Positions 49,248 to 53,868 of a stretch of DNA of 64,000 nt are shown here, piece by piece. The translations under genes were made by a program, and so were the position numbers. Source of the stretch: Escherichia coli (lineage in GTDB: Bacteria > Pseudomonadota > Gammaproteobacteria > Enterobacterales > Enterobacteriaceae); the NCBI RefSeq assembly GCF_003334405.1, contig NZ_QOWM01000005.1. One strand, written 5' to 3'. How positions within the stretch are numbered: position 1 is the stretch's first letter; the number at the start of each line of letters is the position of its first letter. The notes beneath the pieces were generated by a model. It had not been told where the DNA came from. It was given only the letters and a program-made list of their open reading frames with translations, and ran no database searches.

Positions 49248-50723
49248 ATGAATACCCAGTATAATTCCAGTTATATATTTTCGATTACCTTAGTCGCTAC
49301 ATTAGGTGGTTTATTATTTGGCTACGACACCGCCGTTATTTCCGGTACTGTTGAGTCACTCAATACCGTCTTTGTTGCTCCACAAAACTTAAGTGAATCC
49401 GCTGCCAACTCCCTGTTAGGGTTTTGCGTGGCCAGCGCTCTGATTGGTTGCATCATCGGCGGTGCCCTCGGTGGTTATTGCAGTAACCGCTTCGGTCGTC
49501 GTGATTCACTTAAGATTGCTGCTGTCCTGTTTTTTATTTCTGGTGTAGGTTCTGCCTGGCCAGAACTTGGTTTTACCTCTATAAACCCGGACAACACTGT
49601 GCCTGTTTATCTGGCAGGTTATGTCCCGGAATTTGTTATTTATCGCATTATTGGCGGTATTGGCGTTGGTTTAGCCTCAATGCTCTCGCCAATGTATATT
49701 GCGGAACTGGCTCCAGCTCATATTCGCGGGAAACTGGTCTCTTTTAACCAGTTTGCGATTATTTTCGGGCAACTTTTAGTTTACTGCGTAAACTATTTTA
49801 TTGCCCGTTCCGGTGATGCCAGCTGGCTGAATACTGACGGCTGGCGTTATATGTTTGCCTCGGAATGTATCCCTGCACTGCTGTTCTTAATGCTGCTGTA
49901 TACCGTGCCAGAAAGTCCTCGCTGGCTGATGTCGCGCGGCAAGCAAGAACAGGCGGAAGGTATCCTGCGCAAAATTATGGGCAACACGCTTGCAACTCAG
50001 GCAGTACAGGAAATTAAACACTCCCTGGATCATGGCCGCAAAACCGGTGGTCGTCTGCTGATGTTTGGCGTGGGCGTGATTGTAATCGGCGTAATGCTCT
50101 CCATCTTCCAGCAATTTGTCGGCATCAATGTGGTGCTGTACTACGCGCCGGAAGTGTTCAAAACGCTGGGGGCCAGCACGGATATCGCGCTGTTGCAGAC
50201 CATTATTGTCGGAGTTATCAACCTCACCTTCACCGTTCTGGCAATTATGACGGTGGATAAATTTGGTCGTAAGCCACTGCAAATTATCGGCGCACTCGGA
50301 ATGGCAATCGGTATGTTTAGCCTCGGTACCGCGTTTTACACTCAGGCACCGGGTATTGTGGCGCTACTGTCGATGCTGTTCTATGTTGCCGCCTTTGCCA
50401 TGTCCTGGGGTCCGGTATGCTGGGTACTGCTGTCGGAAATCTTCCCGAATGCTATTCGTGGTAAAGCGCTGGCAATCGCGGTGGCGGCCCAGTGGCTGGC
50501 GAACTACTTCGTCTCCTGGACCTTCCCGATGATGGACAAAAACTCCTGGCTGGTGGCCCATTTCCACAACGGTTTCTCCTACTGGATTTACGGTTGTATG
50601 GGCGTTCTGGCAGCACTGTTTATGTGGAAATTTGTCCCGGAAACCAAAGGTAAAACCCTTGAGGAGCTGGAAGCGCTCTGGGAACCGGAAACGAAGAAAA
50701 CACAACAAACTGCTACGCTGTAA
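49248..50723 (+). CDS. xylE: D-xylose:proton symporter (MFS sugar porter)
   Basis: ORF 49248..50723 (491 aa); MFS sugar-porter motifs (GRR, PESPRW). Confidence 0.96.
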   Translation: MNTQYNSSYIFSITLVATLGGLLFGYDTAVISGTVESLNTVFVAPQNLSESAANSLLGFCVASALIGCIIGGALGGYCSNRFGRRDSLKIAAVLFFISGVGSAWPELGFTSINPDNTVPVYLAGYVPEFVIYRIIGGIGVGLASMLSPMYIAELAPAHIRGKLVSFNQFAIIFGQLLVYCVNYFIARSGDASWLNTDGWRYMFASECIPALLFLMLLYTVPESPRWLMSRGKQEQAEGILRKIMGNTLATQAVQEIKHSLDHGRKTGGRLLMFGVGVIVIGVMLSIFQQFVGINVVLYYAPEVFKTLGASTDIALLQTIIVGVINLTFTVLAIMTVDKFGRKPLQIIGALGMAIGMFSLGTAFYTQAPGIVALLSMLFYVAAFAMSWGPVCWVLLSEIFPNAIRGKALAIAVAAQWLANYFVSWTFPMMDKNSWLVAHFHNGFSYWIYGCMGVLAALFMWKFVPETKGKTLEELEALWEPETKKTQQTATL

Positions 50724-50733
50724 TCTTCCTGTC

Positions 50734-50768
50734 CAGCACGCCGCGCCATTTCGGCGTGCTGACTTTTT
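50734..50768. terminator. Terminator hairpin between convergent xylE and psiE
   Basis: cagcacgccg-N8-cggcgtgctg stem plus TTTTT; abuts psiE stop codon. Confidence 0.75.
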
Positions 50769-51177
50769 ACTCCCGCTTCAGCCGTTTCGAATTACACAGC
50801 CACAGGGTGATCACCAGTAACAGGATCGCAGCCGAGTAGATCAACACATCCAGTGGCGATTTATGATCGACGATGATCAAGCGCACAATGGCGGTGATCC
50901 CAATATAGACAAAGTAACGTAGCGGGAAGTGAAAACCGGACTGAAAGTACTTCACAATCAGCGCGATAAATTCGAAATAGAGAAAGTAAACCACCAGTCC
51001 TTCTACCAGCTCATATTTGCTGGTTTGTTCTGGCGCGAACAGCACATCAGCCAGATGCACCGTTTCTTTGCCGAGGAAGACAACCAAAATCAGGCCGAGG
51101 CACAGCAGGCCAAGATTGAGTACGGTCTGCAAAATGGTGGAGATAAACTCCACGCGCGGACGAGAGAGTGACGTCAT
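50767..51177 (-). CDS. psiE: Phosphate-starvation-inducible inner-membrane protein PsiE
   Basis: ORF 50767..51177 (136 aa); four hydrophobic helices. Confidence 0.9.
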
Positions 51178-51308
51178 AGCAGTACCTCCTTCACAGTGGC
51201 GAGCTTCCTGTATAACGCAAAAATGTGACGGAGATCTATATTTTTTGTGTATGTTTTGTTCAACCTGGATTTGGAGCGCGCCTCCACCAAAGCCGGATAT
51301 ACCTACCC

Positions 51309-51346
51309 GTAGGCCGGATAAGCCGCGCCTGGCGGCGCATCCGGCA
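51309..51346. repeat. REP-like palindrome in psiE-yjbT spacer
   Basis: gtaggccggataagccgcgcctggcggcgcatccggca; nearby 13-bp perfect palindrome ggagcgcgcctcc at about 51271-51283. Confidence 0.7.
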
Positions 51347-51446
51347 AGACAAACCGCACCAAAGCCGGTAATTCAAAAATCACCCATTCAGGTGATTCCC
51401 AGCCACCAGCAATGCGCGAAAAATCGACAATGTTCCTCTGGAACAA

Positions 51447-51725
51447 ATGAAACGTAACCTGATAAAGGTGGTAAAAATGAAGCCTTATTTTGCTGCTTTG
51501 ATGTTATCAGTCTCTGTTCTTCCTGCTTATGCTGGTCCGCTCGGTACTGCTGATAAAGCCGACCTACCGCAAAGCAATGTCTCCAGCCCAATGATGGCCC
51601 AGTCGCTCAGGCAACCAGACCTGCAACCGATATCGACGGACAGGAAGACAGAATGTTTTCGCCTTTACACACCAGATCGCAAACCGGGAGTGAACTGCGT
51701 TCCTGATGGCTCGACAGGCCATTAA
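51447..51725 (+). CDS. yjbT: Small secreted hypothetical protein YjbT
   Basis: ORF 51447..51725 (92 aa); second ATG at 51477 has the better Shine-Dalgarno (AAGGTGG) and would give 82 aa starting with a signal peptide. Confidence 0.55.
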   Translation: MKRNLIKVVKMKPYFAALMLSVSVLPAYAGPLGTADKADLPQSNVSSPMMAQSLRQPDLQPISTDRKTECFRLYTPDRKPGVNCVPDGSTGH

Positions 51726-51771
51726 GAATGAAGGTGCCAGTGAGTGCGAAAACTGGCACCTTTCCCATGAC

Positions 51772-53868
51772 TTAGCGGAAATTGACGCTACGGTCGCTGG
51801 TCATGTCATACAACTGGAACTTACGCCCAAGTTGCTGACCACCGTCACGCGTCAGCGGCGTCCAGCCAATCGCCGCACGGCTGCGTGTCGGGCCAGACGA
51901 GAAGAGATCCAACGGTACCGAGACATACACGCCTTTGGTGAAGTCCCCTTCGCCGTACTCCTCTTTCGAAACATTAGTGATCGTGGCATAGCCACCCACC
52001 ACCACGCCGCTATCAAAGCGTTTGGCGATCTCCAGCGTGCCGCCTTTATCCCCTGCCAGATACTGCCCGACGCTGGCTTTAACTAACACATCCTGAGCGA
52101 AAGATGGCGTCCAGTAGGCGGTCAGATGTCCGGTTTTCACGCTGTAGTCGGTGAATTTCATCATATCTTTTGCACTACGCCAGTCGCGCTGTTTAACGTA
52201 GTTGGCATCCAGACCAAACGCCCAGTTGCTGTCCAGCGGGCGATACAACACTTCTGCCCCCGCACCGCCAAACATGGTTTCGAGATAACCACCGTAGACC
52301 TGACCGTAGAAGCCGTTGCCCAGATGCTGGAAGTAGTTGGCTTGCAGGTTATTCACATAGACATCGTTCTGCACATACTCGCGCACATGGGTACGCACGC
52401 GCGGTAAGTGCGAGTCCTGCGGAGGATTAGTGTAGTTAAACTTGTCGTAGTTGTTGGCAAGATTTGCAAACAGGCTGCCGGTGGTCAGCAGATGGTCCGT
52501 CAGCCACAAATCTGCCGTTCCCATCACGCCCAGCTGATACATGTAAAAGTTTTCCGGGCCACCGACCGACTGGTTCAGCACCGGATCGATATGGAAATCA
52601 AAGCGTGATTTGTCGATATACCAGCCCTGCTCGGTGGACTGCGGAACCACTGGCTCGACGCGTTTTTGCGCCAGCGTCGTTTCGTGGCCCAACGGCTCTC
52701 CGGCGAGATGATTTTTCAGGCTGGCGACATCGGTTTCCGTCGTCACCTGCGGCATGTTAAGGCGATTTTCCGTAATGCGGATCGTTTTGATCCCATCCGG
52801 CAGATCGTTCATCACGATCCGATTCGCACGGATGATCCCTTCGCGCGAATCACGATATTTCACCTGCTCGCCGGTAACATACAGCGTATCGCCTTTCGCC
52901 TGGATCTGTGGATCGGCAAGTCCGGCATTGTATTTCAACAGCGTTAACTGATTCGCCACCACCGAATGCTGCAAAATGGCATCCTGCGGCTGCGGTTGAT
53001 ATTGCGGGCGGGCGTTATCGTTGTAAGACGGGCGCAGATCGTTAAAGTTGGTGCGCAACGTAACGCCAAACATAAAGGTGTTGCCACGTTCATAGCTAAG
53101 GTTAACGTCGGCCCAATCGGTAACGCGATAAATCGCACCGACGTTAAACTTACTTTTTTGCTCCAGCTTCCCGGCAAAATCCTGCTGATAATTATTGCCT
53201 TCATACTCCAGTTTCAGGCGCAGCGGTTGCCAGGGCGTCTGGTATTCCACGCCGCCAAACAGTGAGGCAGGACCGTGGAACATCTGGCTACCGTCGATAG
53301 ATCCCGCCTGTTTGTAGCTGTTATCGCGATAGCAATATTTATCACTGGCTGAACAGAGCGGATTTTTCACATTACCGCTGGTGCCCAAATATCCCCAGCC
53401 CAGGCCGAGCGTAAAATCGAACGGCCCCCAGGCTTTGCTGGCAACAAGATATTCCGCATCAAACAGCCCCGTACCGCCGATATCCCGCGCACCAACCGCC
53501 ACTTGCGGCAGCCAGTAACTCTCTTCCCACAAACGCAGTTTGAGATCGAAGGCTTTATCTTTATACGTTTGATCGCCAGAGAACGCTTCGACGCTGCTGT
53601 ACTGCCGGGTGCGCACGTCGGTGTAGCGCAGCGTTGTTTCCAGCCACGGGAAGAGTTGCACTGAAGCTGAGTAATAACGGTACTGATCGTTATCGCGATA
53701 GTTCAGACTCAACTCCCCTTCCCGTGCCATACGCGCGGTGGGCGTTTGTAATAATCCTACGCCACCGAAATCCGACTGCGACGGACCAATGGGCGCAGGA
53801 TATGTTTCGCCGTAGCAAGCTGTGCTAATGCCCAGCGCCAGTAAGCTAAGCAGATGTCTTTTTTTCAT
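51772..53868 (-). CDS. yjbH: YjbH, large outer-membrane beta-barrel-like protein of the yjbEFGH exopolysaccharide-associated operon
   Basis: ORF 51772..53868 (698 aa); signal peptide, aromatic-rich C-terminus ending in F; start overlaps yjbG stop (TAATG). Confidence 0.85.

Follow-up and report, generated by a model that had tools for sequence, protein, structure and literature searches.

The stretch of Escherichia coli DNA analysed here (contig NZ_QOWM01000005.1; 64,000 nucleotides, called the window below, whose numbering is used throughout) contains the gene order xylE-psiE-yjbT-yjbH. In the list of open reading frames, xylE occupies positions 49248-50723 of the plus strand, and yjbT appears as a plus-strand reading frame of 92 codons that extends from 51447 to 51725, with the stop codon included at its end. 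Its neighbors, identified from the same list and from the RefSeq annotation, which for psiE was that of identical DNA, are the psiE coding sequence (50767-51177, minus strand), which lies upstream and is divergent, and yjbH (51772-53868, minus strand), which lies downstream and is convergent. The name yjbT had been assigned by the initial annotation from inspection of the sequence, and it is borne out both by this gene order and by a full-length match to the Pfam family PF17089 (YjbT; E = 1.5e-65), in which residues 1-92 of the product correspond to model positions 1-92. All of the homologues that we found also carry PF17089. The 92-residue product is identical to RefSeq WP_001295279.1, a protein annotated as a 'periplasmic protein' and found in the position psiE-yjbT-yjbH. 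The gene is therefore the known yjbT of E. coli, an ordinary gene of an uncharacterized family; it shares with E. coli K-12 yjbT both the protein and the position between psiE and yjbH, and no difference was seen in the gene itself. A 751-nt region around it was matched in 5,417 of 5,426 complete E. coli genomes, at an identity of at least 99% in 4,391 of them, and yjbT is absent from approximately 12 of the 5,426. It is a real, self-contained, single-gene unit.

The YjbT family is small and limited to a few enterobacterial genera. Homologues were found in Kluyvera georgiana, Pseudocitrobacter sp., Buttiauxella izardii, Buttiauxella sp., Shimwellia pseudoproteus and three metagenome lineages. 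In Pseudocitrobacter and in one of the metagenome lineages, yjbT likewise lies between psiE and yjbH and, because the position is the same, these genes are positional orthologues of the E. coli gene and not merely paralogues. Searches with the YjbT protein returned no matches in NCBIfam, PHROGs, PADLOC or the PDB sequences. In the literature, yjbT is named in a table of FlhDC SELEX results and in a machine-learning feature list, neither of which informs its start or its function; our literature search found no published functional study of the gene, nor any experimental initiation-site or transcription-start data for it.

The DNA that separates psiE from yjbT is composite. The segment at 51178-51262 (minus strand) comprises the 5' part and promoter region of psiE and belongs to that gene rather than to yjbT. 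It is near-invariant in Escherichia and is kept in EC42405, which is without yjbT: there, positions 51263-51768 are replaced by 37 bp containing a hairpin with a 10-bp stem, and xylE is also missing. A little beyond this segment, the initial annotation had placed a perfect 13-bp palindrome, ggagcgcgcctcc (51273-51285), a description that does not survive comparison with its reverse complement, ggaggcgcgctcc. Five positions differ between the two and only the four outer pairs match, leaving 4-bp arms around a 5-nt center. Such an arrangement is not significant, since 338 13-mers with at least four outer complementary pairs occur in the window, or approximately one per 189 nt. The stretch was not reported by the inverted-repeat search, and conservation of it is seen neither in other Escherichia species nor in E. 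coli that lack the adjacent REP element.

That REP element, which had been described as REP-like, is real and complete (51309-51345, minus strand). We took as diagnostic of a REP an imperfect, GC-rich palindrome of about 35 nt, a tail of the form CTTATC(A/C)GGCCTAC, an extragenic position and multiple copies, and each of these properties, which are those of REP/BIME elements in general, is present. The inverted repeat at 51313-51345 folds at -25.5 kcal/mol, and the consensus tail CTTATCCGGCCTAC is found exactly at 51309-51322 on the minus strand; it occurs 14 times in the window, where chance alone would give 0.25 occurrences. Next to it, at 51292-51306 on the plus strand, an alignment revealed the remnant of a second REP in the opposite orientation (GCCGGAT..CCTAC), at which other Escherichia species have GCCGGATGCGGCGTGAACGCCTTATCCG(T/G)CCTAC. 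The locus thus differs from those species, which have two inverted REPs, in having one complete REP and a truncated partner. A search against the Rfam family RF02564 (naRNA4) gave 29.3 bits, below the gathering threshold of 59.5 bits, and this resemblance reflects the shared REP only. The REP is absent from approximately 1,224 of the 5,426 complete E. coli genomes (about 23%), from which it follows that it is not needed for yjbT and is a dispensable passenger; no evidence was found that it regulates yjbT. Overlying the REP on the minus strand is a reading frame for 47 residues (51303-51446), listed by RefSeq as the hypothetical protein WP_000487766.1. It is unannotated in the REP-less strain R14 and matches no NCBIfam family, and it is probably spurious.

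From approximately position 51376 onward, the leader of yjbT is conserved even in genera in which the gene lies in another neighborhood. Two palindromes are found in it. The first, AATCACC-N6-GGTGATT (51378-51397, plus strand), folds at -7.8 kcal/mol, is conserved in unrelated genomic contexts and may be an operator or a part of the promoter region. The second, TGTTCC-TCT-GGAACA (51431-51445, plus strand), folds at -5.8 kcal/mol and ends 1 nt before the first ATG of the reading frame; its GTTCC..GGAAC arms are kept in nine of ten orthologues, with loops of 3-5 nt. Evidence of covariation in both is weak and suggestive at best. The palindromes are preserved as sequences and do not co-vary, so they may act either as RNA hairpins or as DNA sites for a protein.

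A strict scan for the sigma-70 consensus found no yjbT promoter. The best candidate from our own looser scan, TTCCCA-17 nt-AAAAAT (51396-51424, plus strand), is a weak one that scores 8 of 12; it would put the start of the transcript near 51431, where the second palindrome begins, and a -10-like hexamer is present at alignment columns 71-74 in six of ten orthologues. Two other arrangements were considered and dropped. The first was a sigma-E promoter composed of GGAAC ... TCTGA, elements that stand about 5 nt closer together in the yjbT leader than the consensus spacing of sigma-E promoters. The second was a leaderless mRNA with a TGaTAAGGT extended -10, which fits Kluyvera-type sequences but not that of E. 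coli, where an extra A is present.

At the other end of the gene, yjbT terminates at 51725 and the stop codon of yjbH begins at 51772, so that the convergent arrangement with a gap of 46 nt is exactly as first described. A hairpin with a perfect 11-bp stem (51731-51762; 100% complementary arms) occupies 32 of the 46 nt and folds at -25.3 and -23.5 kcal/mol on the two strands. No run of five or more U follows it on either strand, nor is it among the calls of the terminator scan. Hairpins are also found downstream of yjbT in other genera, including Kluyvera, where the genomic context is different and the hairpin is of another sequence, which speaks for a terminator proper to yjbT. The hairpin in the gap is a probable bidirectional terminator for both convergent genes, albeit one without the canonical U-tract.

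The central question raised by yjbT is where its translation begins. The reading frame contains two in-frame ATG codons, ATG1 at 51447 and ATG2 at 51477, which would give products of 92 and 82 residues, respectively, and the ambiguity that the initial annotation pointed out is real in the databases: RefSeq and more than 1,000 contigs carry the 92-residue form, and 68 contigs from other annotators carry the 82-residue form. Uncertain starts of this kind are frequent in annotation, and some public annotations already give the shorter form. To compare the two codons, the strength of the Shine-Dalgarno (SD) sequence was calculated as the duplex energy between the 20 nt upstream of each ATG and the 3' end of 16S rRNA, with all 1,992 ATG triplets in the window as the background. 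ATG1 yields -3.3 kcal/mol, essentially no SD pairing, a value equalled or beaten by 33% of these triplets, while ATG2 yields -8.5 to -9.3 kcal/mol and ranks within the top 1.4%. The weak ribosome-binding site at 51447 and the strong one at 51477 that had been read from the sequence are thus both confirmed by calculation. The SD of ATG2, AAGGTGG (51465-51471, plus strand), is separated from it by a 5-nt spacer and is present as (A/G)AGG(T)G(G) in ten of ten orthologues. Close to ATG1, the sole SD-like GGA sits in the 3' arm of the predicted TGTTCC-TCT-GGAACA hairpin.

The E. coli sequence, folded singly, forms a hairpin that would sequester the SD of ATG2; RNAalifold leaves the surroundings of the SD and ATG2 unpaired, so this hairpin is not conserved. 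In the same region, CUGAUAA (51459-51465) is complementary to UUAUCAG (51504-51510), a pair that brackets the SD and ATG2 and that shows seemingly compensatory changes in two genera, with weak statistics and nothing predicted by RNAalifold.

Comparison with other genera favors ATG2. All homologues outside Escherichia are 75-85 residues long and begin with the N-terminus M-[KRT]-x-Y-[FW], the methionine of which aligns with that of ATG2. The DNA context, (C/T)TGAT-AAGGTGGT-AAAA-ATG, is nearly invariant across these genera; relative to them, the Escherichia sequence carries a 1-nt insertion within this stretch. None of the non-Escherichia homologues has an ATG ten codons upstream of the ATG2 equivalent, and in-frame stop codons lie upstream of it at codon -8 in Pseudocitrobacter, -9 in Buttiauxella sp. 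and -7 in Shimwellia. The family profile that we built is 82 positions long, and distant homologues align with it from their first residue; in this respect our reading departs from the PF17089 annotation, as the family N-terminus is here placed at the methionine that is residue 11 of the 92-residue model. Within Escherichia, four further species-level genomes, E. albertii and E. whittamii among them, keep the 92-codon frame and ATG1. ATG1 and the nine codons that follow it (MKRNLIKVVK; 51447-51476, plus strand) are without an SD and missing outside Escherichia, and ATG1 is, as described below, mutated in natural strains. This segment is an in-frame extension specific to Escherichia and most likely forms part of an untranslated 5' leader.

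Natural variants within Escherichia were sought in metagenome contigs, using a pattern that allowed any base over the 32 nt separating the hairpin from ATG2, together with the contigs for which an 82-residue product had been called; the ATA allele of ATG1 was also searched for in the collection of complete genomes. ATG1 is changed to ATA in exactly five complete E. coli genomes (IAI39, CE10, AR_0013, N32 and AF57) and in one metagenome contig (L054), and to AGG in the E. coli assembly GCA_048666525.1 (L033). All of the genomes and contigs with ATA or AGG retain an intact SD and the complete reading frame of 82 codons from ATG2; ATG1 can thus be dispensed with. The extension also carries the substitutions K2T, R3C and N4K. 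Moreover, in two sequences (L025 and L027) the SD is changed from AAGGTGG to AAGGAGG, which in the long frame would amount to V8E and which improves the SD; the idea that AAGGAGG is a common allele was dropped, as it occurs in one complete genome only. The exact window sequence of a 57-nt region around ATG1 was found in 4,602 of the 5,414 genomes with a match. To judge from the low divergence of these sequences, retention of ATG1 in most Escherichia is also what would be expected of neutral DNA.

These variants bear directly on the model that stands in the databases, in which ATG1 is the sole start and YjbT is made as a 92-residue precursor with a 29-residue signal peptide. This model is annotated by RefSeq, corresponds to the longest open reading frame and is covered over all of its 92 residues by the Pfam model, the 92 positions of which, however, probably reflect its having been built on the Escherichia form of the protein. 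In the strains with ATA, RefSeq annotates a 279-nt coding sequence (92 residues) that starts at the ATA and is given the K-12 protein accession, so that an ATA start has to be invoked in IAI39-type strains; this indicates that the long model has been propagated and is not supported by the sequence. Contradicted as it is by all of the comparative and energetic evidence, ATG1 as the only start is very improbable. The case has the marks of a longest-ORF annotation artifact, in which an upstream ATG without an SD is preferred over one with a strong SD and conserved N-termini, and a similar artifact occurs elsewhere in the family, where the annotation of one Buttiauxella metagenome-assembled genome adds another extension, of five residues (MRWSV). 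Where yjbT differs from the usual case is that the long model is retained even when the upstream codon is ATA.

We therefore consider it very likely that translation of yjbT starts, mainly or only, at ATG2 (51477), and the preference for this codon implied by the initial annotation is strongly backed by the comparative data. Initiation at 51477 would be driven by the conserved AAGGTGG sequence 5 nt upstream, and ATG1 with its nine following codons would belong to the 5' leader, having come to lie in frame by accident in the lineage of Escherichia. Annotation pipelines that favor the longest reading frame would then have spread the ATG1 model to RefSeq, UniProt and Pfam.

A softer version of the database model, in which both codons are used in Escherichia, with ATG2 as the major start and ATG1 as a minor one, would add a longer and more basic front to the signal peptide and leave the mature protein the same. 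ATG1 is in frame and is followed by a lysine- and arginine-rich stretch that would suit the front end of a signal peptide, it is retained in most Escherichia, and it would lie on the mRNA if the transcript starts near 51431, as the weak promoter prediction has it. However, ATG1 has no SD and is abutted by a hairpin, it occurs in no other genus, and it has been lost at least twice, and probably three times, with no damage to the rest of the gene; nor is there any sign of selection on the ten codons of the extension. Dual initiation thus appears distinctly unlikely, and we retain ATG2 as the main or only start.

Counted from ATG2, the product begins directly with a predicted Sec-type signal peptide, as had been proposed, and the classic features of one are present. 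The 19 residues MKPYFAALMLSVSVLPAYA (51477-51533, plus strand) carry the family N-terminus M-[KRT]-x-Y-[FW], a charged n-region, a hydrophobic core and suitable residues at -3 and -1. They can be divided into MK, the 13 hydrophobic residues PYFAALMLSVSVL, with a mean Kyte-Doolittle hydropathy of 2.41 (calculated with our own, untrained script), and PAYA, which is followed by GP at the start of the predicted mature protein. The basic front, the core of 10-15 residues, the small uncharged residues at -3 and -1 and the freedom from proline at +1 that are expected of substrates of Sec signal peptidase I are all found. The same features are seen in every member of the YjbT family when counted from the conserved methionine, with the equivalent cleavage site kept; when codons were compared one by one with those of distant orthologues, conservation of the signal peptide was moderate. 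A lipoprotein signal is not indicated: the lipobox [LVI][ASTVI][GAS]C finds no counterpart in the 82-residue E. coli YjbT, in which no cysteine precedes residue 60, and in the Buttiauxella and Shimwellia relatives the residue before the cysteine is proline (A-P-C), contrary to the lipobox.

Signal-peptide prediction on both variants had been suggested as a means of choosing between the starts. Both forms do look valid, as the 29-residue N-terminus of the ATG1 form, with a net charge of +5 before the hydrophobic core, is also a plausible signal peptide, but for that very reason the prediction does not discriminate between them. Signal peptidase I would cut the 82-residue precursor after AYA, releasing a 63-residue periplasmic protein made up of a variable linker and a conserved C-terminal segment. 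Because this cleavage would remove the N-terminus, the choice of start alters only the charged front of the signal peptide and the predicted mature protein is the same either way. It follows that N-terminal proteomics of the mature protein, which had been put forward as a check, cannot settle the start, since both precursors share the predicted cut site.

The two parts of the mature protein have evolved very differently. In the linker (51534-51644, plus strand), 24-31 of 34-37 aligned codons are non-synonymous relative to distant orthologues, which marks it as fast-evolving; it is probably disordered, as far as modeling can tell. It is followed by the C-terminal segment (K)TECFRLYTPDRKPGVNCVPDGSTGH (51645-51725, plus strand), delimited by codon comparison, which contains two invariant cysteines and ends in the stop codon. 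When the C-terminal 26 codons were compared with those of the homologue in L005, 7 were identical, 18 synonymous and one non-synonymous, a pattern of extreme purifying selection. The invariant residues are T58, C60, P70, G71, N73, C74, P76 and D77 (82-residue numbering), of which the two cysteines, 13 residues apart in the chain, presumably form a disulfide loop. An AlphaFold2 model built from an 11-sequence alignment was unstructured and uninformative (pLDDT 53.5, pTM 0.14).

These codon data also bear on whether yjbT is a gene at all. The reading frame is short and taxonomically restricted, and no function has been assigned to it; it is also lacking in the approximately 12 complete genomes mentioned above and gave a structure model of low confidence, all of which could suggest a chance reading frame within a REP-containing spacer. 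Against this stands the very large excess of synonymous over non-synonymous changes in the C-terminal segment, which effectively refutes it, and five genera, with differing genomic contexts, have kept the start, the SD, the signal peptide, the cysteines and the terminator hairpin. That yjbT is a chance frame is hence scarcely credible, and we treat it as a genuine gene in what follows.

In much of its design, YjbT resembles the ordinary Sec-exported periplasmic proteins of enterobacteria, with one or two basic residues, a core of about 13 residues, a proline, AYA followed by G at the predicted cleavage site and two cysteines in the mature part. It differs from ordinary small periplasmic proteins in that the mature protein is conserved only in its last 25 or so residues, with export, cleavage and the disulfide all being predicted here. 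One could imagine that YjbT is a Sec-exported precursor whose sole functional part is a C-terminal disulfide-loop peptide of about 25 residues (T-x-C-[FY]-x9-P-G-x-N-C-x-P-D), with the spacer and signal peptide serving as a delivery vehicle. We regard this proposal as rather unlikely. If it were true, yjbT would move as one unit of approximately 390 bp, with two conserved palindromes in its leader and its own terminator, situated between psiE and yjbH in some genera and elsewhere in others, and the layout would fit a periplasmic or secreted signaling or effector peptide under the control of a palindrome-binding regulator.

In summary, the RefSeq annotation of yjbT and the PF17089 model probably include ten residues that are not translated, and the gene provides a clean worked example of how a start codon can be resolved by comparative genomics. 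The corrected start is relevant to the cloning and tagging of YjbT and to the prediction of its localization. Its biological consequence is small, as the same mature protein is predicted from either start. For the family itself, what is mildly interesting is the combination of a variable spacer with a very strongly conserved C-terminal segment that carries two cysteines.

The first ATG of yjbT (window 51447-51449) is replaced by ATA in the complete genomes of five E. coli strains (IAI39, CE10, AR_0013, N32 and AF57); this codon lies at positions 379-381 of the comparison loci L059, L060 and L061. The RefSeq coding sequence of yjbT in these genomes is still 92 amino acids long and begins at the ATA codon, and in some of the five it has been given the K-12 protein accession. 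Such an annotation looks like an artefact in which an existing protein model was propagated.

The Shine-Dalgarno sequence that serves the second ATG is itself subject to rare variation, with AAGGTGG changed to the consensus AAGGAGG at window 51469 in one complete genome (NZ_CP148382.1) and two metagenome contigs (L025 and L027). This Shine-Dalgarno sequence and the second ATG are flanked by two complementary segments, CUGAUAA (51459-51465) and UUAUCAG (51504-51510), in which paired changes were observed in Pseudocitrobacter (UUGAUAA/UUAUCAA) and in a Buttiauxella sp. (CAGAUAA/UUAUCUG), with weak statistics. RNAalifold predicted no pairs for this bracket.

Further upstream, the yjbT leader carries two palindromes, AATCACC-N6-GGTGATT (51378-51397) and TGTTCC-N3-GGAACA (51431-51445), both of which are kept in Escherichia, Kluyvera, Pseudocitrobacter and Buttiauxella, even at unrelated genomic neighbourhoods. 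No convincing covariation was found in either palindrome. They could be either protein-binding sites or RNA hairpins.

The spacer between psiE and yjbT (51263-51375) differs among lineages. Other Escherichia species have two inverted repetitive extragenic palindromes (REPs) at this location, the window has one and a remnant, and approximately 1,224 of the 5,426 complete E. coli genomes have none. In the window, the REP is flanked by a direct repeat, CACCAAAGCCGG, at 51285-51296 and 51357-51368. A 47-amino acid "hypothetical protein" (WP_000487766.1; 96 cluster members) is annotated across the REP on the minus strand (51303-51446), in an open reading frame which adjoins the first ATG of yjbT and is left unannotated in strains devoid of the REP; this gene call is probably spurious.

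The whole yjbT unit (window 51263-51768) is missing from E. coli strain EC42405 (locus L004, 1577-1698), where approximately 506 bp have been exchanged for 37 bp containing a hairpin with a perfect 10-bp stem, CGCCGAATAC..GTATTCGGCG. In this strain xylE is likewise absent between malG and psiE. In all, yjbT is missing from about a dozen complete genomes. Separately, one complete genome, that of strain CX21 (locus L003), carries a 94-bp tandem duplication covering the start of psiE and the DNA upstream of it (approximately window 51117-51210), which could be real or an assembly artefact.

Relative to a homologue 52% identical overall, the final 26 codons of yjbT (51645-51722) differ by 18 synonymous changes and a single non-synonymous one. 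Approximately 75% of the 37-codon linker preceding this C-terminal segment has been replaced. From this codon comparison, selection in yjbT appears to be limited to the C-terminal segment with its two cysteines.
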